Shown here one piece after another: positions 5,717-57,764 of a stretch of DNA of 64,000 nucleotides. A model generated the notes under the pieces. That model was not told the DNA's origin, did not search any database, and saw only the letters and a list, made by a program, of their open reading frames with translations. The DNA lies in assembly GCF_013315695.1 (NCBI RefSeq), contig NZ_CP054353.1; one strand, written 5' to 3'. A program made the position numbers and the translations under genes. Source of the stretch: Escherichia coli (GTDB lineage: Bacteria > Pseudomonadota > Gammaproteobacteria > Enterobacterales > Enterobacteriaceae). The first letter of the stretch is position 1. Each line of letters begins with the position of its first letter.

Positions 5717-6673
5717 ATGTGGAAACGCTTACTTGTAGTCTCTGCAGTCTCGGCAGCCATGTCGTCTATGGCGTTGGCCGCTCCATTAACCGTAGGATTT
5801 TCGCAGGTCGGATCGGAATCCGGCTGGCGCGCCGCAGAAACCAATGTGGCGAAAAGTGAGGCCGAAAAACGCGGAATTACGTTGAAAATTGCCGATGGTC
5901 AGCAAAAGCAGGAAAACCAGATTAAAGCGGTACGTTCCTTCGTTGCACAAGGGGTGGATGCGATCTTTATCGCTCCAGTGGTTGCGACGGGTTGGGAACC
6001 GGTATTAAAAGAGGCGAAAGATGCCGAAATCCCGGTCTTCTTGCTCGACCGTTCCATCGATGTGAAAGACAAATCTCTCTATATGACCACCGTTACTGCC
6101 GACAACATCCTCGAAGGTAAGTTGATCGGTGACTGGCTGGTAAAAGAAGTGAATGGCAAACCATGCAACGTGGTGGAGCTGCAGGGCACCGTTGGGGCCA
6201 GCGTCGCCATTGACCGTAAGAAAGGCTTTGCCGAAGCCATTAAGAATGCGCCAAATATCAAAATTATCCGCTCGCAGTCAGGTGACTTCACCCGCAGTAA
6301 AGGCAAAGAAGTCATGGAGAGCTTTATCAAAGCGGAAAACAACGGCAAAAACATCTGCATGGTTTACGCCCATAACGACGACATGGTGATTGGTGCAATT
6401 CAGGCAATTAAAGAAGCGGGCCTGAAACCGGGCAAAGATATCCTCACGGGTTCCATTGACGGTGTACCGGACATCTACAAAGCGATGATGGATGGCGAAG
6501 CGAACGCCAGTGTTGAACTGACGCCGAACATGGCGGGACCCGCTTTCGATGCGCTGGAGAAATACAAAAAAGACGGCACCATGCCTGAAAAGCTGACGTT
6601 AACCAAATCCACCCTTTACCTGCCTGATACCGCAAAAGAAGAGTTAGAGAAGAAGAAAAATATGGGGTATTGA
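5717..6673 (+). CDS. ytfQ: Galactofuranose ABC transporter periplasmic binding protein (318 aa)
   Basis: Signal peptide plus sugar-binding-protein fold ORF; first gene of ytfQRT-yjfF cluster. Confidence 0.92.
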   Translation: MWKRLLVVSAVSAAMSSMALAAPLTVGFSQVGSESGWRAAETNVAKSEAEKRGITLKIADGQQKQENQIKAVRSFVAQGVDAIFIAPVVATGWEPVLKEAKDAEIPVFLLDRSIDVKDKSLYMTTVTADNILEGKLIGDWLVKEVNGKPCNVVELQGTVGASVAIDRKKGFAEAIKNAPNIKIIRSQSGDFTRSKGKEVMESFIKAENNGKNICMVYAHNDDMVIGAIQAIKEAGLKPGKDILTGSIDGVPDIYKAMMDGEANASVELTPNMAGPAFDALEKYKKDGTMPEKLTLTKSTLYLPDTAKEELEKKKNMGY

Positions 6674-40002: not shown

Positions 40003-41818
<1,816 letters not shown>

Positions 41819-47270: not shown

Positions 47271-47355
47271 GCCGAAGTGGCGAAATCGGTAGACGCAGTT
47301 GATTCAAAATCAACCGTAGAAATACGTGCCGGTTCGAGTCCGGCCTTCGGCACCA
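47271..47355 (+). tRNA. leuX: tRNA-Leu (anticodon CAA), 85 nt with long variable arm
   Basis: Sequence gccgaagtggcgaaatcggtagacgcagttgattCAAaatcaaccgtagaaatacgtgccggttcgagtccggccttcggcacca. Confidence 0.95.
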
Positions 47356-47889
47356 TCTACATTTTCCTCTTGAAAAACAAGCGATTAAGTAAATTATTTT
47401 ACCTTTTTTGCCTATCTAATCTTCACTGATTCTTTCCCGTATAAAAGCCACTGTGATTGTTAATGGCTTTGGTATGTTAGCACGCAGTGGCAAGTAGTTA
47501 CCAGGCTCAACCTTGTACTGCATACGCCAGTATGCCCCCCTTTGAAGCAGGAAGACGCGCCGCCGTCTCTAAACCTATGCCAAGCACTTTTAACCGTTCC
47601 ACACTTAGTTCGGCGTTCCGTTCAAGCCTGTCGTGGTGACTTACCACGAATAAACAAGCAAATTCGCGGTATGGTATTCGTTACGAGAGCGGTTAACTGA
47701 CAAGACTCCTGTGATACGCCTAAGGTGCTTAAATTGATGCGTCCAACATGGCACAAAAGGCGGTCTATCGTTTAATTTTGCTCCATACATCAACTGGCAT
47801 TGCCAGCTGTATGGGGCTTGGTCTGCTGGTTCCGATGAACGGATTAAATTGCTAAGATGCAGACCATAAGCCATAAGGCGGAGATAAGT

Positions 47890-49098
47890 ATGAAATCTGT
47901 AGAACTATTTGCCGGTGCTGGTGGCTTGGCTATGGGTTGCGAAATTGCTGGTTTTGAGCATCTTGCAGTCGTTGAATGGGATAAATGGGCCTGTGATACC
48001 GTTAGAGAGAACAAAAAGAATGGCTTTCCGCTGTTGTCTGATTGGGATCTTTTTGAGGGTGATGTAAGAGAATTTGATTGGTCGAAAATCCCTAAAGGGA
48101 TTGACCTTCTTGCGGGAGGGCCACCTTGCCAGCCATTTTCAATCGGTGGTAAGCACAAGGCTAATTCTGATTCGCGGGACATGTTTCCAGCGACAGCAGA
48201 AGCGATCAGGCAAATTCGCCCTAAGGCTTTCATCGTCGAGAATGTGAAAGGCTTAACACGGGCAACCTTTGCGAGCTATTTCCAGTACATCCAGTTACAG
48301 CTTGAGTTTCCAGAAGTAGCCCCGCGAAATGGCGAAGACTGGAGCGAGCATTTAAAACGCTTGCAGGAAGAAAAAACCAGTGGAAAGAACAAAGGGAGAG
48401 GGCTGACGTATAACGTTCTGGCTACGTTAGTCAATGCAGCAGACTACGGCATCCCACAAAAACGTGAGCGTGTCTTCATTGTTGGCTTCCGCGATGATCT
48501 TGAAATTGAGTGGTCGTTCCCTAAACCGACACACAGTTATGATGCACTCGTTTATGATCAGTGGGTTACTGGTGATTACTGGAAACGACATGGTTTAGAA
48601 ATGCCAACTGTTCCAAGCCAGATGGTTAACCGTATCGCAAAATTGCGTAAAAATCCTCCCGATACACTTCCGTGGAAAACTGTTCGAGATGCAATCGCGG
48701 ATTTGCCAGATCCTGAAACAAAGGCGGCAAAGATGATCCGGAATCATGCGTTCCAGGCGGGGGCACGAACTTATCCCGGTCATACCGGAAGCCCCTTAGA
48801 TCTGCCAGCTAAAACGCTCAAAGCAGGTGCTCATGGCGTTCCTGGGGGCGAGAACATGCTTGTTCGTGATGATGGCTCAGTACGCTATTTTACTGTGCGA
48901 GAAAGTGCCAGAATTCAAACATTTCCCGATAGTTATCGTTTTCACGGGAGTTGGACTGAAACTATGAGGCAGTTAGGTAACGCTGTGCCGGTTCATTTGG
49001 CGTATTGCGTTGCCAGCAGTGTAGCGGAAAAGCTGCTGACCTCTGAAATTGGGAACATCCTTAAGCAGGGTGGCAATTATAAAAGGGCTTCTGCATGA
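47890..49098 (+). CDS. DNA (cytosine-5)-methyltransferase, Type II R-M modification subunit (~402 aa)
   Basis: C5-MTase motifs I FAGAGG, IV PPCQPFS, VI ENV, VIII QKRERVFIVG, X GNAV; SD GGAG upstream of ATG 47890 (ORF track starts at 47857). Confidence 0.85.
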   Translation: MKSVELFAGAGGLAMGCEIAGFEHLAVVEWDKWACDTVRENKKNGFPLLSDWDLFEGDVREFDWSKIPKGIDLLAGGPPCQPFSIGGKHKANSDSRDMFPATAEAIRQIRPKAFIVENVKGLTRATFASYFQYIQLQLEFPEVAPRNGEDWSEHLKRLQEEKTSGKNKGRGLTYNVLATLVNAADYGIPQKRERVFIVGFRDDLEIEWSFPKPTHSYDALVYDQWVTGDYWKRHGLEMPTVPSQMVNRIAKLRKNPPDTLPWKTVRDAIADLPDPETKAAKMIRNHAFQAGARTYPGHTGSPLDLPAKTLKAGAHGVPGGENMLVRDDGSVRYFTVRESARIQTFPDSYRFHGSWTETMRQLGNAVPVHLAYCVASSVAEKLLTSEIGNILKQGGNYKRASA

Positions 49099-49745
49099 CA
49101 GGAAAGGTCATACCATTTAATCCACTTGATAAACAAAATTTAGGTGCCAGCGTTGCGGAAGCCTTATTGAGCAAAGATGCTCATCCTCTGGAGGAGTTAA
49201 CCTCATTTCAAGGAGCAGGGATTTACGCAATTTATTACACTGGCGATCATCCTGCTTATAGGCAACTGGCAGAACTGAATCGTGACGGGCAATTTCGATT
49301 GCCTATCTACGTGGGTAAGGCCGTCCCAGCAGGGGCGAGAATGGGGCTTACCAACCCTGATAAGGTTGGTAACGTTCTGTTTAGGCGCTTGAAAGAACAT
49401 GCAGAAAGTATTCGCGCAGCGGAAAATCTTTCGATTGAAGATTTTTATTGTCGATTTTTGGTTGTTGATGACATCTGGATCCCATTGGGAGAATCGCTGG
49501 TTATCTCTCGCTTTAAACCGATTTGGAATTCGTCTATTGATGGTTTCGGTAATCATGACCCAGGTAAGCATCGCTACACTGGTTTACGTCCTCGCTGGGA
49601 CTTTATGCACCCGGGGAGAGGATGGGCTCAAAATTTACGTGAGCGTGATGAAACTGTGGATGAACTCATTCGTGATTCTATACAGTATCTTCAGAATTTA
49701 CCGCCTTGCTTGGCTCAGAAATTTATCGAAGCTGAAGGCGATTAA
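49095..49745 (+). CDS. GIY-YIG-family restriction endonuclease, Eco29kI/Cfr42I-like (216 aa)
   Basis: GIY...YVG motif (GIYAIYYTGD...RLPIYVGKA); start overlaps the MTase stop (ATGA). Confidence 0.65.
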   Translation: MTGKVIPFNPLDKQNLGASVAEALLSKDAHPLEELTSFQGAGIYAIYYTGDHPAYRQLAELNRDGQFRLPIYVGKAVPAGARMGLTNPDKVGNVLFRRLKEHAESIRAAENLSIEDFYCRFLVVDDIWIPLGESLVISRFKPIWNSSIDGFGNHDPGKHRYTGLRPRWDFMHPGRGWAQNLRERDETVDELIRDSIQYLQNLPPCLAQKFIEAEGD

Positions 49746-49866
49746 TCAGCAAATGATCATCGGAGGCATCTGCCTCCGAATGTGATTAAGCCTTGGTTGA
49801 CAAAGTGGTTGCTTAAAACATTAAGCGTTAATTTTCTGGCCCTCTACCTTCTGACGTGCATAATTC

Positions 49867-50442
49867 TCAAATATCAGGGAGTTGCAAGAACGACTTAAGT
49901 CGGTAGAAGGTTGCTTTGCTGATCTCTAACCTATCCTGGACCGCTGCTGGTGGTAATCCTCGTGCTAATAACTCACGTACTTGTTCAACGGTTGCTTTGA
50001 TCGGTCTGCCGCAATGCTTACCTTCCGACTGAGCTCGTTTGATTCCTGCGGCTCTACGCTCTGCGATTAGGTCTTTTTCCAGGCTGGCAAGTCCTGCCAT
50101 CATAGTGAGCATGGCTTTACCCACTGGTGTTGAAAGATCAAACCCCTCTCGCAAGCTGACAACCTTCACACCCTTCATTTGCAACATTTCAACAGTAGAT
50201 AGTACATCGATAGTGTTACGTCCCAAGCGGTTTATAGCAATCACGATCAGCGTATCGCCTTCTCGCACATAATTGAGTAGTTCAGCAAACCCTGGACGCT
50301 CTCCTGCCTTGATTGCACCACTCACCGCTTCATCACTAAACCAGCGAGTTACGCTATAACCAGCATCGGCTATCTGCTTCTTCTGGTTTTCAACGTTTTG
50401 ATCGCTGGTGGAAACTCGCACATATCCGATCACAGTTGTCAT
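49867..50442 (-). CDS. Serine recombinase, resolvase/invertase family (191 aa)
   Basis: N-terminal catalytic motif IGYVRVSTSDQ and C-terminal HTH. Confidence 0.85.
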   Translation of the reverse strand: MTTVIGYVRVSTSDQNVENQKKQIADAGYSVTRWFSDEAVSGAIKAGERPGFAELLNYVREGDTLIVIAINRLGRNTIDVLSTVEMLQMKGVKVVSLREGFDLSTPVGKAMLTMMAGLASLEKDLIAERRAAGIKRAQSEGKHCGRPIKATVEQVRELLARGLPPAAVQDRLEISKATFYRLKSFLQLPDI

Positions 50443-50454
50443 GATGTTCTCTAA

Positions 50455-50576
50455 GTCTCAAAAGGTAGTGTCAAAATAATAGCTGTCTCAAAATTAAAGA
50501 TCAACCTTTTGAGACAAGGCGAAGCCGCATTCTGTCGTTGCGTCGGTGTGGTCTTATAAGGAGATGGTTTTGAGAC
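50455..50576. promoter_or_regulatory. Candidate res/recombination site: GTCTCAAAA repeats upstream of the serine recombinase
   Basis: GTCTCAAAA at 50455 and 50485, GTGTCAAAA at 50468, inverted TTTTGAGAC at 50507 and 50568. Confidence 0.45.
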
Positions 50577-50681
50577 TGGATAGCAGCGGTTTAGGAATAG
50601 AGGCTTGGAACGAGAGTATGGGGAGAATGGAAATTCGGAATGGGCGGTCAACTTATTGGGCGTGATTGCTCACGCCTTTGT

Positions 50682-51033
50682 TTAGATCTCAGAACACAGG
50701 CTCAGCGTGTAGAGTGCCGTTTCACCATCGTTGTTAGTTGGGCGCATAACGAAAACTGGATCACTGCCGTTGTCGATGTAAGTAACCGCTATTCCACCGT
50801 CTGGGGTGGCGTACATCTTCGCAATACTTTTCTCTCCAATGAAACCCAGCCGCCAGGTTTTACCACCCATGCTCACTTTCATGATTTTGTCCCGCACATC
50901 GAGGCGAGTTTCGACAGACGATTTTTGGCTACCAGAATCTATCTGCCCTTCCTGAATGGCCTTACAGGTGAATGTGGTTGCACTTGAGGCGAAGGGGGGG
51001 GACGAGCAGCGCCGCGAGAATCAATTTTTTCAT
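50682..51033 (-). pseudogene. Small secreted protein gene interrupted by a G8/C8 homopolymer frameshift (possible phase-variable gene)
   Basis: ATG at 51033 encodes signal peptide MKKLILAALLV then 8 C at 50994..51001 shifts frame; 7 or 10 C would join it to the 71-aa ORF 50682..50897. Confidence 0.5.
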
Positions 51034-51213
51034 GGTCTTCCTTTTGGATACGAGTTAAGAGTTCGTCGGGAGACATTATAAAATCTTTAATTGATAAAAA
51101 CGATCAATTTCTATCGTATTGATCGATAAAATTGATCATAATTGAAACTATAAATCCTACGCTCAGTCGTTATGGATGAGGTTTTTTATAAGAGAACTCA
51201 ACGGGATGATGTT

Positions 51214-51420
51214 ATGAAAAGAGCAATGATGGTGATGTGTGGGCTACTGTTTTCACAGTTGGTAGCAGCAGGGCAGATCACAATGATCGATCCCCAGCAG
51301 GATACGACGGAGAATGGCAAGACGCTTTGCACCTACGAGAACAGCCAGTATGTTTTTACCTACGTCACTAAAGGGCAGTGCCCCTATGCAAAGACTTTCG
51401 ATACTCAGGATTCAGAGTAG
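51214..51420 (+). CDS. Small secreted cysteine-containing protein (68 aa from MKRAMM)
   Basis: Signal peptide MKRAMMVMCGLLFSQLVAAG; mature part has two Cys (TLCTY, GQCPY). Confidence 0.5.
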   Translation: MKRAMMVMCGLLFSQLVAAGQITMIDPQQDTTENGKTLCTYENSQYVFTYVTKGQCPYAKTFDTQDSE

Positions 51421-52604
51421 AGGCTGCATAAAATAGGAAGTGTTGTTTAACTTCATGAAAAGACAGGTGTGCTTAGCACAAGCCTCCAACGGATTGATTG
51501 TTAATTCTTCTGATAACGGCACAGCGCAAGGCTTTACGCAAAGAGAGTGATAGTTACTATCTTGATGACTATGGCAATTTTCCCCCTGTAACAACGGCAT
51601 TCATTACCTGCTAATTACCAGCGGATTACGCGCCAGTTTGATGGGAATTAACTCAGGGTTATTGCATGGGGTAGTGTGGAGTGAGCAGGGTGACAGTCTA
51701 CCGTTGGGTGAAGGGCTGATAGGTAATCGACGCGAAGCGCCGGAACCATACTGTTATGCGCTGGCCTTGGTGCCAGGCTCACGCCGCGCATGAAAGATAG
51801 CCATTACAGGAGAGATAATTTTTGACAAGTTACCTTCATCAAAGGTGCTTCTCCTGTATAAATGCTTGTTATGCTCGCTATGCTCCCAAACACAAACCCA
51901 TTAAACCCAACTAACTTAAGGTTAGTTAATTGGTTTTCTCTCTCTCTTGGGCTACTACCGCCCAAACTTTGCTTAATGCCATACAGCGACTACGCCGCCA
52001 TTAACAACACTCCACAATGATCCAATGGCATTCCTGCTTAATGTCATCCACCGATCTTGATTAGCCACCAACCAAACAACCACCCTAAATCTTTTAGGCT
52101 GTCTGTTTATCTGGTGCAAGGTAGCTATGACATTACCATACGTGCAAACATCCCAAGCCAATCATCACTGATTGGCTCGTGCTGATGCACTTCAGTGCAG
52201 AGAGAGAATCTCTCTACTATTATAGCGTATTTAGTAGGTCCCTGTATTTAAAGGAAAAATTAGGGTGAAAATCGCCATTGTTCACTTTTTTTCTCAAGAA
52301 ATGGCGAGATGCTGTTCGTAAATGGGAGGCATGGCTGTCTTCTCTGGTGGCAAGTTCTACCACAAATTTTGATTGACAGCAACCATCTATTTCTGGTATA
52401 AGAAGCACTAATTGCAAAGCAAAAATGCAACTAATTGAAAATGACCAAAAATATTTCATGAGATCACCGTTTGGGTATTGACAAACGTTAGTGGTCTATG
52501 GTATTCTTAATACTAAGAAGGGGAGAAAACCTTCTGAACTTTTCAGCCCTGGGCAGGGTAACTGCCTGGGGCTTTTTGCATCCAAAATCCGAAGGAGGCC
52601 ATTA

Positions 52605-52781
52605 TTGAAGTATTACAGCAGTGACCAGATTTTTAATGACCTGGTGAGCGGCGAAGTGAAACGCCACGTTATTTACGCATCTATGCAAGCAGCAAAATCG
52701 AGAGGGTATACAGACCGAATGGAAATGTTTCAATCTGCAATTATCCGTTATGACCAACACCGAAGGGAGAACACCAACTAA
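52605..52781 (+). CDS. Hypothetical small protein (58 aa, TTG start)
   Basis: Perfect SD AGGAGG 6 nt upstream of TTG 52605; stop overlaps the next gene's SD; function unknown. Confidence 0.4.
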   Translation: MKYYSSDQIFNDLVSGEVKRHVIYASMQAAKSRGYTDRMEMFQSAIIRYDQHRRENTN

Positions 52782-52790
52782 GGAGGAACA

Positions 52791-53711
52791 TTGATTCAAG
52801 CATACGAAGACGGCTATTTTTACAGAGATACCCCGCACCACGATCACTGCCCGCTTTCAGCATTTTCCAGACCATCCCAGCAATTCATCGTTATTGATAA
52901 TGTTCTGTACGTTGTCGAAGTGGAAAGTGGTGAAATTCTTCACTACGACTCGACAGAGTATTTGCTTGATGGTGGCATTGTTCAGGATCTGCATTTGAGT
53001 TACTCGACAGCAGACACCGCCAAATCAAAACAGGCTCACCGTGAATACGCTAATAAGCTGGGCGACCTTCCAGGGAATGCAGCCTATAACGGGATCAAGG
53101 AATACGCAGACGTATTAAGCAAGCCAGATTTCAAGAAAGTATTTGCATTGTGTCAGGAAGTAGATAGACGCAATGTAGTGTTTATAAAACGTGCGGATTT
53201 GAGCATAATACTGAACACCACGCCGGATCATCTCAATCGTGTATTATCTGCTCTTGAACGTAAGCACTACATCAAAGTTGATAAAGCTGAACACCAGAAA
53301 GGAGTATTAAAACTGTGGGTTAATCCTTCGTTTGTCTGGAAGGGTGATTCAGCTAACCGCTACTTATCTGGATATTTGCAGGGCTTCCCAATCTTGGAAC
53401 GTAAACGCTCCACAAAACGTTCTGACGTGCTCGACACGCTCACGGCTGCTGCAATGGTTGCCTTTGATACCTGGCACATTGAACACGGTTATAAGGCCAA
53501 TCAGCCTCATTCTAATGAATGGTATGCAGAGATCACGATGTACGAAAACGCCTACGGCGAAGGGGTGAGGCTTGCAGCAGAAAATAAGACATTGAACAAG
53601 TTATTGAACCCGGCAACATCTGAGGGGGATTTCGTTTATGAGCTATTCACTACGGCACAATACAGGGAATACCTGCAAACATTGGCAAAACAAGTAAGGA
53701 GATTACACTGA
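52791..53711 (+). CDS. Hypothetical protein (306 aa, TTG start) with possible winged-helix region
   Basis: SD AGGAGG at 52781..52786, TTG at 52791; N-terminal His/Cys cluster (HHDHCP); central helix-rich segment; no recognised catalytic motif. Confidence 0.6.
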   Translation: MIQAYEDGYFYRDTPHHDHCPLSAFSRPSQQFIVIDNVLYVVEVESGEILHYDSTEYLLDGGIVQDLHLSYSTADTAKSKQAHREYANKLGDLPGNAAYNGIKEYADVLSKPDFKKVFALCQEVDRRNVVFIKRADLSIILNTTPDHLNRVLSALERKHYIKVDKAEHQKGVLKLWVNPSFVWKGDSANRYLSGYLQGFPILERKRSTKRSDVLDTLTAAAMVAFDTWHIEHGYKANQPHSNEWYAEITMYENAYGEGVRLAAENKTLNKLLNPATSEGDFVYELFTTAQYREYLQTLAKQVRRLH

Positions 53712-53995
53712 ACCAATGTTTTGTAATAAAGAAGCCAGCACAATACTTATTTGAACTAAATTAAGCAACTCTCATACACACCGCTCTTTTGGTGAGTTAT
53801 TTATTACTATCTTTAAGGTGATGAGTGTTTATACTGTATTAAATTATTATAAATAAGGGGATGGTGTATGATTACAGCTCTTTATTGGTGTTTGTTCTTT
53901 CAGTTTGCGCTGTATTTTTTGTCTAAATTAAATTTAAATTGAAAATTAGCCCTGATCTTGAAATAGTTCAGGGCTGGAATTTCTAAAAAATAACA

Positions 53996-54955
53996 TCAGT
54001 GTGCTTTTAGTTCATCTTTAGCTAATGAGTCATAGAGTATTTTTGTGAGCGGAGACTCTAAATAATCATCACTAAGTAGTTTAATAAAATGCTTTTGGGA
54101 TTCTTTTGTTTTTACGAGCAATTGTGTGCCGTCTTCACTTACAATTAAAACTGTTGAAAGATAGGTATGCTTGCTTACATAATCGATAATTTCTGGCACA
54201 TCAATTTTCCCCAGTACAGGTGAGTGTTTGGCAATTTTGGCAAGCTTCCTTGAGAAAGAAATTTCTTTTGCACTCTTCTCAAGGTGAGTAAGATCTTCGA
54301 TAAGCAATGAAGCTTTCAATGCTTCCAAAGCCACCGTTGCTTGAGCTTCAATAACCTGATGGAACTGCATCGTTATTTCTAAAGTTTTTTGATTTTTTAT
54401 CAGGAATTCGTCGTCTATAAGAGCCAAGTCATAATTATAATCTAATCGGAACACTTGGGTTGGCAATTCTTTTAAATACCCGTCTGCGTCTGGTATCAAG
54501 TTAAACAATTTTCGGCTTTGCTCAAAAACCATGAGGTTTGTTTTGTTCTTATACAATGACAAACACTTATTGTTGCCTCTTAACTGAATTATTATCCCTT
54601 TCACGTCAGTAAATTTATTATTTAAATCATAATAATCCTGAGAGTTAGGCGGTATGGCTATTGCATTTTTTATAAAATCAAACTCTTTTGGATGTTCTTC
54701 ATAATCAAATGCAAACAAGGCATTTTTTCTATCATCAAAATTCGAAAGGAGAGGAATGGTTAAATCCTCATTTGTCACAATGTCGTCGTAAAGCCTAATT
54801 TTGAATCCTTCAACAATTTTTGGTAAAGCTTCAGCATCTATTTTAGATAATTTTAATTCATAATTATCTTCAGTTTTAACTATAAAGATAATTCTTATAC
54901 CTGAGAAATTATCGAAAATTTCGGTGATTTGATTTTTAAAATTCACAGGGGTCAT
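53996..54955 (-). CDS. Candidate Kiwa KwaB-like (DUF4868-like) defence protein (319 aa)
   Basis: AT-rich soluble ORF coupled by 1-nt TAATG overlap to the upstream 4-TM protein; assignment is by architecture only. Confidence 0.45.
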   Translation of the reverse strand: MTPVNFKNQITEIFDNFSGIRIIFIVKTEDNYELKLSKIDAEALPKIVEGFKIRLYDDIVTNEDLTIPLLSNFDDRKNALFAFDYEEHPKEFDFIKNAIAIPPNSQDYYDLNNKFTDVKGIIIQLRGNNKCLSLYKNKTNLMVFEQSRKLFNLIPDADGYLKELPTQVFRLDYNYDLALIDDEFLIKNQKTLEITMQFHQVIEAQATVALEALKASLLIEDLTHLEKSAKEISFSRKLAKIAKHSPVLGKIDVPEIIDYVSKHTYLSTVLIVSEDGTQLLVKTKESQKHFIKLLSDDYLESPLTKILYDSLAKDELKAH

Positions 54956-55542
54956 TATTTTTTCCTTGCTATGAAAACGTAGTCATCAAAAAAACTATAG
55001 AATACTTGATCGTCAACAGTCAGCACATCCATCGAGATTGCAATGACGTTTTTTACTTCACCACTTCCTGCATGAGAAATGTTAACTCTATACAACTTAT
55101 AACCGAAAAGCGCCAAAGTAGGATTCGCATAATACTTATCCGTTTTAATGAAAATTAAACCAATAACTACTATTAAGAGAAAGTACGCAATGTTTTTCTG
55201 AGGGTCATCAAAACTGAATCCCATAAAAGGTACTATGTAAGTTGCTAAGAAAGTCAAACTTTCATAGCTCTCACTTTGGCAAGCAGTGATTGTTACACAG
55301 TCAGCATTGTTGACCTTCGTCAATCCTTTAAACCTTCTATAGAAATAAAATGCTATTCCTATAAAAATTAAACAAATTATTGAGATTATGTTGCTGGAAG
55401 CTAATTGATAAAAACCTATAAAATGGCAGGAAGAGCCATAACAAAATGGGATTTTTGCGCTCAAAATGATAATAAAAACAAACAGCAACATTAAAGACAG
55501 TATGTATAGTCCCATCTTGTTGAATGTGCTTTTTCGTTTCAT
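54955..55542 (-). CDS. Candidate Kiwa KwaA-like membrane protein (~195 aa, four predicted TM helices)
   Basis: Four hydrophobic segments; start taken at MKRKSTF with GGGGGA SD (ORF track starts 10 codons upstream). Confidence 0.45.
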   Translation of the reverse strand: MKRKSTFNKMGLYILSLMLLFVFIIILSAKIPFCYGSSCHFIGFYQLASSNIISIICLIFIGIAFYFYRRFKGLTKVNNADCVTITACQSESYESLTFLATYIVPFMGFSFDDPQKNIAYFLLIVVIGLIFIKTDKYYANPTLALFGYKLYRVNISHAGSGEVKNVIAISMDVLTVDDQVFYSFFDDYVFIARKK

Positions 55543-55826
55543 GTTATCCCCCAGTGATGAAATCATAATCAAAACTTGATCATGTGAACATCAAAAGCAT
55601 ACCTTAAAGCACTGGTTTTTTGTACAGCAATCGGCAAATTCATGCGTACTATCGAACTTACAAGAGGACGCATAGTAGATTTTCTGATCCAAATTGCCAT
55701 CATGTACTTTTAATTCATGTAGAGTAGCCAATGAAGTATCAGCAATTACATGATTTTATTGTCTATTTTTTATGTTTTTTTGTAAAACACCAGAAGATTG
55801 AAAAGGGCCAATGAGGCCCCTTGGCG

Positions 55827-56078
55827 TTATTTACGGTTTTTGTTGGATTGAGCCAGCACGGAAGCAGCAAGCTGCTTGGTTAAAGTACTGGAACGTGGAT
55901 TATCCAGCGCCGCAGATGCTTTATGTTCCATTGCACCACTTGTCTGATTTGAGGAACCTTTTTGAGAGAGAGCTGAACCAGCAAGGCTCTTCTGAATTGC
56001 AGATGCGTTGGGGTTGTTTAGGGTTTGTGCTGCGACTGATGCGACTTTACTTGATGTTTGCTTTGAATTGTTAGCCAT
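55827..56078 (-). CDS. Hypothetical low-complexity Ser/Ala/Gln-rich small protein with ~20-aa internal repeats (83 aa)
   Basis: Repeats of A-[AS]-x-[LA]-x-Q (SVAAQTLNNP / SLAGSALSQK / SAALDNPRSS / LAASVLAQSN); no TM segment. Confidence 0.35.
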   Translation of the reverse strand: MANNSKQTSSKVASVAAQTLNNPNASAIQKSLAGSALSQKGSSNQTSGAMEHKASAALDNPRSSTLTKQLAASVLAQSNKNRK

Positions 56079-56309
56079 TCTCAACACCTATTCAAGAAGT
56101 GAATTATTGAACATCTTGTATTTAAATCAAGAATGAATACAAGATGTAGTGTTAATGATAATCCTCACCGCTTCGCTGTGCAACGATGAAAAATCTCTTT
56201 ACTGGATAAAACTACAGTTTTAAAAATGTGCGGTATTTCTGCTTTCAAATTGGCTTAATGTGCATACATTTAGATGATACCACTGCGTTTTCTGATCGTT
56301 ATTCGTTCA

Positions 56310-57587
56310 CTATTTATCAGTTTTCTCACGTTGGGGCTCCGTCTCTATCTCTGGGTAACGTAATAGCTCGATGTATGGCTGTAGTTCAATCGGAGATGCT
56401 GCATTCTTGCTGTACGTCTTGAAACTTTCTGTAGAGCCGCGCTCATGACCCAAGAGAAGTGCGATCCGGTCTTCTGTAACTGGTTTTAACTTACCTCGTC
56501 CAACCCCCCCACGATCCAGAATCTGCGCCACTGCATGGCGTAGACTGTGAAAAACTTTCAACTCTGATCCTACTTCCCCCAATGCCTTACGTTTAGCCCT
56601 CGTAAAACGCTGTGAATGCCACGTAGAGCGCTTTCCATCTGCGCGGTCAGCTATCGACGCACGATAGAATAAAAAGCCGTTATGGGGCTTCTCACGCAGC
56701 GACAAAACCAACGGAGTGATCAGGCTATGCACCGGAATAATACGGGCTGCTGATTTGGTCTTCCCCTCCGTCACTTCGAAACATAACACCCCTTCAATCT
56801 CTCGGATGTTGGCTGCACGTAATGAACAAATTTCATTCAGGCGCATACCGCTATACATCCCGATCAGCGTTACATTTTGCATCTCTTCATCATTCGCCAT
56901 CACAGCGAACACCTTCGCCAATTCTCCAGGCTCAAATACTTCATAACTCACCTTGCTACTTTTGGCCTCCAGCGCATGACCGCGCCAGATGTTTTCTTGC
57001 GGTGCATCGTGGTAGCGATTACGGGCCAGATCCCAGATTTGAGCCAGTGCGCTGACATAGTTTTGTATGGTCTGTGGTGCTTTCTCCGTCTTGAGCTGAT
57101 CAAGCCAGCCTGTAACGGTGGTTCGGTTAACGTCACGAAGCTGAACATCACGCTTTTTCAGATGTTCTAAGAGCACTTCAACAGCCTTGTTTGTCTTCGA
57201 TAGCGTAGTGAGTTTGCGCTTCTCGCTGAACTGCAATAGATAAAGATCACGCATTTTCAGGAGGGATGGCACTCCTTGGGATTGGGTATTGCTCATGACA
57301 TGCTGAACAGGTGTTTCATGAACTCGGGCGCTAACTCTGCGTAGCTCTGCAATTGCCTGCTCAATCTTACTCCCTTCTCTTGGTTTGACCTGTTCCCGTA
57401 AACGTATCCATTCAACAGCGATAGCATCTCTGAACAATCGCGCCTGACGTATGTCACTTGTGCCAGTGCTCTTGACGAAGTAGCGCTTGTTGCCAAAAAG
57501 CGAGCGCATGTAAGCTGGAACGGTAATCCTTACCAGATAGTTTCCGCATGGATCTAAAACTAAGTAACGATCTCTCTTGAAACTCAT
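56310..57587 (-). CDS. Tyrosine site-specific recombinase (island integrase), ~425 aa
   Basis: C-terminal catalytic region with conserved R...HxxR...Y (SLRHAVAQ ... ESFKTYSK); adjacent to island att repeat. Confidence 0.85.
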   Translation of the reverse strand: MSFKRDRYLVLDPCGNYLVRITVPAYMRSLFGNKRYFVKSTGTSDIRQARLFRDAIAVEWIRLREQVKPREGSKIEQAIAELRRVSARVHETPVQHVMSNTQSQGVPSLLKMRDLYLLQFSEKRKLTTLSKTNKAVEVLLEHLKKRDVQLRDVNRTTVTGWLDQLKTEKAPQTIQNYVSALAQIWDLARNRYHDAPQENIWRGHALEAKSSKVSYEVFEPGELAKVFAVMANDEEMQNVTLIGMYSGMRLNEICSLRAANIREIEGVLCFEVTEGKTKSAARIIPVHSLITPLVLSLREKPHNGFLFYRASIADRADGKRSTWHSQRFTRAKRKALGEVGSELKVFHSLRHAVAQILDRGGVGRGKLKPVTEDRIALLLGHERGSTESFKTYSKNAASPIELQPYIELLRYPEIETEPQREKTDK

Positions 57588-57707
57588 GTTCACCCCGGCT
57601 ATTTTGTAAGGGCTTTTACATGGGGAAGTTTCCTGTGTAGATTGTTGGAGCGGCGAATTATTAGCAGTTGATTCAATAGCTTAGATCAGCTTGCTGGACA
57701 AGCGAAC

Positions 57708-57750
57708 ACCGTAGAAATACGTGCCGGTTCGAGCCCGGCCTTCGGCACCA
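57708..57750 (+). repeat. Direct repeat of leuX 3' end (island attR), 43 bp with one mismatch
   Basis: accgtagaaatacgtgccggttcgagCccggccttcggcacca versus tRNA 47313..47355 (T in the tRNA). Confidence 0.9.
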
Positions 57751-57764
57751 TCGGAACATCAATA

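Follow-up and report, generated by a model that had tools for sequence, protein, structure and literature searches.

The window analysed here, a stretch of 64,000 nucleotides of the Escherichia coli chromosome, very probably carries an intact two-gene Type II restriction–modification (R-M) operon of the Eco29kI/Cfr42I family, with CCGCGG as its likely target. A C5-cytosine DNA methyltransferase gene (M) is followed by the gene for a GIY-YIG endonuclease (R). The pair is a standard, intact system of a well described family. It has already been annotated identically in RefSeq, and a PADLOC model covers the subfamily of 216-residue enzymes to which R belongs. Its significance beyond correct annotation is slight. 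What is new is that the M-then-R operon extends across the subfamily, that the pair forms a 1.93 kb cassette with sharp edges, that R matches Cfr42I circumstantially and that the pair shares its leuX islet with Kiwa.

In the mechanism that we propose, M would methylate the host chromosome at C5 of a cytosine within the target, most likely CCGCGG. R would cut unmethylated sites in phage or plasmid DNA entering the cell (CCGC/GG, with 2 nt 3' overhangs), presumably by the chemistry described for Eco29kI, which employs one metal and a tyrosine-activated water. One promoter just upstream of M would serve both genes. M would be translated first and R would start in an ATGA overlap, such that R synthesis is coupled to, and comes after, that of M, with neither a controller (C) protein nor a DNA-binding arm on M taking part in regulation. 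The promoter–M–R cassette of 1.93 kb would act from the tRNA-proximal edge of a 10.4 kb islet that also holds Kiwa.

The methyltransferase and endonuclease genes

By its profile matches, M (47890–49098, + strand, 402 amino acids) is a member of the C5-cytosine DNA methyltransferases (Pfam PF00145/TIGR00675). The TIGR00675 score is 180.9 bits (cut-off 100.65), PADLOC MTase_II matches with E=4.7e-135, and Pfam PF00145 (DNA_methylase) is matched by two segments (E=5e-34 and E=5e-26) that together cover model positions 1–322 of 324. The identical protein is named `DNA cytosine methyltransferase' in RefSeq (WP_000843538.1). The initial annotation had credited this reading frame with a full set of C5-methyltransferase motifs, and all are present: ELFAGAGG (motif I), GPPCQPFS (IV), ENVKGL (VI), QKRERV (VIII) and GNAVPV (X), with FAGAGG at residues 7–12, PPCQ at 78–81 (Cys80), ENV at 117–119, QKRER at 190–194 and GNAV at 363–366. 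Pfam and TIGR00675 agree with that reading. The catalytic motifs are invariant across an alignment of seven sequences. M is 50% identical to M.Eco29kI end to end; similarity to M.HhaI and M.HaeIII is confined to the catalytic motifs. The PF00145 match is split around the variable region.

The M reading frame runs from an ATG at 47890 (MKSVELFAGAGG...) to a stop codon at 49096–49098, and the protein begins directly at motif I, with no N-terminal regulatory or DNA-binding arm. We place the start at 47890 because a Shine–Dalgarno sequence, GGAG, precedes it at 47880–47883, because it corresponds to residue 1 of all aligned homologues and because the RefSeq coding sequence starts there. A mechanical list of open reading frames gives an earlier ATG at 47857, which would extend M to 413 amino acids. 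This candidate was rejected, as no homologue reaches upstream of MKSVEL and the GGAG serves 47890. Two minus-strand reading frames, 47844–48233 and 49203–49571, were set aside as spurious, being antisense to M and R, for which the support is strong.

The second gene (49095–49745, + strand, 216 amino acids) had been proposed to encode a GIY-YIG nuclease from its motifs and size. On sequence, R clearly belongs to the Eco29kI family of GIY-YIG nucleases. It carries the GIY and YVG motifs (GAGIYAIYY and LPIYVGKA), matches Pfam PF09517 (RE_Eco29kI) with E=4.9e-66 over model positions 2–160 of 164, and matches the solved Eco29kI structures (PDB 3mx4, 3nic and 3mx1) with E~2e-39. The PADLOC model REase_II PDLC03452 covers it at full length (1–216 of 216, E=1.1e-153), and the RefSeq name of the identical protein is `Eco29kI family restriction endonuclease' (WP_000147098.1). 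Modelling and mutagenesis have defined the active site of Eco29kI as Tyr49, Tyr76, Arg104, His108, Glu142 and Asn154 (PMC1952068). All six residues are kept in R, as Tyr44, Tyr72, Arg98, His102, Glu133 and Asn145, and they are invariant in a five-member alignment with Eco29kI and the gonococcal, Deinococcus and Paraburkholderia homologues.

Operon layout and the leuX islet

M and R are separate, adjacent and co-oriented genes, as in a Type II system, here Type IIP or, should R be tetrameric, Type IIF. Both frames are intact, neither protein is truncated when set beside its homologues, and M precedes R, as the initial annotation gave it. The 4 nt overlap between the M stop and the R start, an ATGA at 49095–49098 (+ strand), is read directly from the sequence and is likewise where it had been placed. 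An A/GTGA overlap is found also in the Paraburkholderia, Pseudomonas aeruginosa, Dickeya and other enteric homologues. Such an overlap suggests translational coupling of R to M.

DNA homology with related enteric loci begins exactly at 47819, 71 nt before the start codon of M, and ends at 49746, one base past the R stop. The upstream block, M and R form a discrete, self-contained cassette of 1.93 kb (47819–49746). The upstream block (47819–47889, + strand) is conserved in loci L012–L014 and in the Dickeya locus L010. Besides the GGAG, it contains a candidate extended -10 element, TGcTAAGAT, at 47850–47858 and a weak -35 element, TTCCGA, at 47830–47835, from which we propose that a single promoter upstream of M serves both genes. 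The proposal for 47850–47858 is built on conservation across loci and not on a generic promoter scan, which made no call there. That scan, which also covered terminators, returned a single weak promoter-like site, 490 nt ahead of M, and its terminator-like sites all fell within genes; this yield is at or below the shuffled expectation. A hairpin, CGGAGGCA-TC-TGCCTCCG, lies 16 nt past the R stop (49761–49778, + strand), outside the conserved cassette, and is a possible transcript end or stabilizer. The terminator scan made no call on it because it has no T-run. Rfam gave no match in or beside the R-M pair.

Between leuX and M there is no reading frame with any family match. Since a controller gene is absent and M has no N-terminal HTH arm, we have filed the system neither as controlled by a C protein nor as autoregulated by its methylase.

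In comparisons with relatives at 60–90% amino-acid identity, pS for M and R is 0.83–0.92 (saturated) and pN is 0.06–0.29. That pN lies far below pS indicates purifying selection on both genes.

The pair begins 535 nt downstream of leuX, the tRNA-Leu(CAA) gene (47271–47355, + strand; ARAGORN and Rfam tRNA), which is the integration site of the islet. A repeat search located two copies of a 45 nt direct repeat: attL (47313–47357), forming the 3' part of leuX, and attR (57708–57752), 98% identical to it. These repeats bound an islet of 10.4 kb with the R-M pair at its tRNA-proximal edge. The order within it is M and R, a small serine recombinase (49867–50442, - strand), short hypothetical genes, a winged-helix protein (52791–53711), the Kiwa genes kwaB and kwaA (kwaB at 53996–54955; PADLOC E=1e-116 for kwaB) and a tyrosine integrase adjoining attR (56310–57587, - strand). 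The integrase is assigned from the annotation of the identical region of EcPF7. The GC fraction falls from ~0.53 in core genes to 0.32–0.48 in the islet. Beyond the islet comes another leuX island, which is decayed and holds a pseudo-integrase and IS fragments.

A search of 5,426 complete E. coli genomes showed the 2 kb around the pair to be 100% identical in six (EcPF7, MS15047, JSWP006, MINF_7C, NCTC9080 and CEA106S) and 96.6% identical in a seventh; the copies in these seven genomes all carry the same annotation. The whole islet is equally rare (7/5,426). The proteins are found more widely, the exact M on 707 and the exact R on 610 public contigs. Klebsiella and Enterobacter have copies that are 92–98% identical, and Cronobacter also has the exact M.

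Target specificity and alternative explanations

Eco29kI, MraI, NgoMIII and Cfr42I all cut CCGC/GG (PMC2241918, PMC4081073), and Cfr42I does so while being only 32% identical to Eco29kI (PMC2241918). R.DraR1 of Deinococcus radiodurans likewise cuts CCGC/GG, and every single C/G-to-T change tested in this site abolished cleavage (PMC10855626). Within M, the core of the variable target-recognition region (TRD), residues 286–331 (HTGSPLDLPAKTLKAGAHGVPGGENM...), shares 74% identity with M.Eco29kI and 67% with the gonococcal methylase, in both cases above the identity of the whole proteins. The initial annotation had offered CCGCGG as a guess from family resemblance. That guess is strengthened by the characterized family members, every one of which cuts CCGC/GG, and by the TRD core of M, and from these we infer CCGCGG as the likely target of the pair. 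We found no experiment or methylome on this locus in the literature. A survey of REBASE lists 310 putative m5C CCGCGG systems of varied organization (PMC10855626). Counts of the hexamer are drawn from too little sequence to weigh, both in the window (none in the 10.4 kb islet against ~1 expected, and five against ~13 in 47 kb of core) and in the related cassettes (none or one). A strain carrying the pair would probably be resistant to SacII and Cfr42I and would restrict unmodified DNA bearing CCGCGG on entry, which bears on transformation or phage typing of these clinical E. coli lineages.

The closest characterized relative of R is probably Cfr42I rather than Eco29kI. Cfr42I, from Citrobacter freundii RFL42 (GenBank EU262735), is a GIY-YIG enzyme that cuts CCGC/GG and is a homotetramer with Type IIF behaviour (PMC2241918). 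Its published extinction coefficient is 132,960 for the tetramer (33,240 for each monomer), and its calculated tetramer mass is 97.3 kg/mol (PMC2241918). With values of 5690/1280/120 (120 per Cys being assumed), the composition of R, with four Trp, eight Tyr and two Cys, gives 33,240 exactly, the published monomer coefficient. The mass of R is 24,321 Da without the initiator Met, and so 97.28 kg/mol for a tetramer, which fits Cfr42I if the Met is removed. The two enzymes are also alike in their identity to Eco29kI (34% global for R; 32% as published for Cfr42I). Among 124 family proteins checked, some of them 92–98% identical to R, the R of this window alone fits both coefficient and mass, and the Eco29kI, gonococcal and Deinococcus enzymes do not fit the pair of values. 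That sole fit suggests that Cfr42I belongs to the same subfamily of 216-residue enzymes. R may be Cfr42I or a near-identical relative; the match is circumstantial, drawn from published parameters with removal of Met and 120 per Cys assumed. The sequence or name of Cfr42I was not found among the cluster members, in other papers or in a supplement. If the link is true, R is a characterized commercial reagent, a tetramer acting on two sites, and this locus shows the setting of that enzyme in a natural genome, namely a leuX defence islet with Kiwa. A bolder reading holds that the cassette (47819–49746) is independently mobile, hopping between unrelated islands and prophages with the aid of the small serine recombinases that adjoin it in this and other enteric loci, and that it is also the natural genomic form of Cfr42I. 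We consider that combination improbable.

Several other explanations deserve to be weighed. The subfamily might belong to the family and share its mechanism and yet have drifted to a recognition sequence or methylation sensitivity other than CCGCGG/m5C. R is indeed only 34–42% identical to the characterized enzymes Eco29kI, NgoMIII and R.DraR1, and R.DraR1 demonstrates how sensitivity to methylation and preference for a metal can vary within the family (PMC10855626). Characterized members with as little as 32% identity nevertheless all cut CCGC/GG (PMC2241918, PMC10855626), the TRD core stays 74% identical to that of M.Eco29kI, and R reproduces the coefficient of Cfr42I exactly, and its tetramer mass as well if Met is removed. 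Drift of this kind seems to us very unlikely. We think it about equally unlikely that R is silent or inactive in this strain, which would leave M in effect as a solitary epigenetic enzyme. There is no strong consensus promoter or ribosome-binding site directly before R, merely a weak AAGGG 7 nt upstream, as a silent R would have it. R is, on the other hand, full length with its catalytic residues intact, six unrelated isolates share its sequence at 100% identity, and the overlap that would couple it to M is conserved. That R is under strong purifying selection throughout the subfamily also makes a decayed or silenced endonuclease less likely. That M might be an orphan methylase with a Vsr-like repair partner draws on related loci that do carry vsr (vsr–M–R in Paraburkholderia, and nearby in P. 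aeruginosa). Here the downstream reading frame is an Eco29kI-family nuclease with no Vsr domain, and tblastn searches of the window with two Vsr proteins, one from Paraburkholderia and one from P. aeruginosa, returned none (best E=0.08 over 28 amino acids). The PF09517 match of R and the negative Vsr search rule this explanation out to the point where we give it a vanishingly small chance, and the initial reading of the locus as a Type II pair is upheld.

The remaining alternative is compatible with the operon that we describe and differs from it in selective role alone. The pair could be an addiction module that stabilizes the leuX islet by post-segregational killing, more than a defence against phage. 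It lies at the edge of a mobile islet, the cassette occurs in several unrelated mobile contexts, and in the related DraI system cells die when M is lost (PMC10855626). Set against these points, the pair adjoins Kiwa in a defence-type islet, and Eco29kI restricts phage lambda vir in vivo (PMC3039593); addiction and defence are, moreover, not exclusive roles. We regard a mainly addictive role as possible and the most credible of the alternatives, yet still the less likely view. The preferred explanation remains an intact Eco29kI/Cfr42I-family operon that would modify and restrict CCGCGG.

Comparison with known systems

Eco29kI, encoded on plasmid pECO29 and represented by PDB entries 3mx1, 3mx4 and 3nic, belongs to the same Pfam family as R and has the six catalytic residues in common with it. 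Its partner is a C5-methyltransferase 50% identical to M, and that system too has a start/stop overlap and no C protein (PMC3039593). The two nucleases are 34% (global) or 42% (local) identical; the N-terminal region of R is unlike that of Eco29kI, and R is without the three-residue and two-residue insertions of the latter. The plasmid of Eco29kI is 3.9 kb in size and its gene order is R then M, whereas the pair described here is M then R in a chromosomal tRNA islet. Eco29kI is a monomer that dimerizes on one site. Cfr42I resembles R in its enteric host and in its membership of the Eco29kI family, but its tetrameric state and two-site mechanism would be transferable to R only through a link in sequence.

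The NgoMIII-type (gonococcal) and MraI/DraI endonucleases are 38–39% identical to R and have the same invariant core, with CCGC/GG established experimentally as their target (PMC2241918, PMC10855626). The gonococcal locus has R then M with a stop/start overlap, in contrast to M then R here. DraI of Deinococcus radiodurans has an unlinked m4C methylase, and its endonuclease tolerates m5C (PMC10855626).

The nearest relatives make up the subfamily of 216-residue enzymes (PDLC03452), with hosts in Pseudomonas, Stenotrophomonas, Burkholderia, Xanthomonas, Dickeya, Klebsiella and Enterobacter. R is 66–98% identical to its relatives among the best 120 matches and the cluster members read, and 60% identical in Paraburkholderia. 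Length, M-then-R operon, 4 nt overlap and type of methylase are all as in the window. The neighbouring genes vary: some loci have vsr or another, divergent gene with an Eco29kI domain, and neither is present here. All of the subfamily loci that we inspected have M then R with an ATGA or GTGA overlap; they come from Paraburkholderia, P. aeruginosa, Dickeya and several enteric contigs of metagenomes or assemblies. Because of this conservation we take the order to be a trait of the subfamily and not a peculiarity of this locus. The locus makes plain that the two gene orders, R–M in pECO29 and the gonococcus and M–R here, mark two deep subfamilies of Eco29kI-type systems.

Organization of the leuX islet

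The islet that carries the restriction–modification (R–M) pair is integrated at leuX, the tRNA-Leu(CAA) gene (47271–47355, plus strand). It is 10.4 kb in length (47313–57752), its ends are formed by a 45-nt direct repeat, and a tyrosine integrase is encoded at its distal end (56310–57587, minus strand). The entire islet is present in only seven of 5,426 complete E. coli genomes.

The R–M pair, comprising the C5-cytosine methyltransferase gene (M; 47890–49098, plus strand) and the Eco29kI-family GIY-YIG endonuclease gene (R; 49095–49745, plus strand), shares this islet with the Kiwa anti-phage genes kwaB and kwaA, which occupy 53996–55543 on the minus strand. The assignment of kwaB (53996–54955, minus strand) is given by a match to the PADLOC KwaB model with an E value of 1e-116. 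The Kiwa segment is also the GC minimum of the islet, at 0.32–0.36. Between the R–M pair and Kiwa lies a gene (52791–53711, plus strand) for a protein of 306 amino acids annotated as a winged helix-turn-helix protein; comparison of this protein with NCBIfam and PADLOC gave no match in either.

Sequence flanking the islet

Past the right repeat is an older, decayed leuX island (57949–64000), which is described here from the annotation of the identical region of EcPF7, a complete E. coli genome. The island holds a tyrosine integrase pseudogene, interrupted by an internal stop, and after it pieces of IS3, IS66 (ISEc23), IS110 (ISEc45) and IS21-family elements. In the core-genome part of the window, Rfam matches at 40058–40229 and 41063–41257 comprise two copies of the REP-derived naRNA4, together with Ysr276.

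The serine recombinase and the neighbours of related cassettes

A small serine recombinase of the resolvase/invertase type (191 amino acids; 49867–50442, minus strand) is encoded on the downstream side of R, at a distance of 121 nt. Many E. coli genomes, for example that of strain C, hold a separate copy of this recombinase segment elsewhere, with 89% identity. A hypothetical gene (50682–51033, minus strand), frameshifted according to the EcPF7 annotation, belongs to the stretch of DNA that accompanies the recombinase in other E. coli genomes.

Related M–R cassettes on other enteric contigs (L012–L015) also have a resolvase downstream. These resolvases are only 40% identical to the recombinase of the window, and they lie outside the block of DNA that is homologous between the cassettes.

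In the P. aeruginosa loci L006–L009 the related M–R pair is immediately followed by a second ORF with an RE_Eco29kI domain, encoding 255 amino acids at about 5772–6541 of those loci. This ORF is very divergent, with 27% identity across 139 amino acids. Vsr, an HNH_2 protein and a BrxR_CTD protein are encoded near the P. aeruginosa pair.
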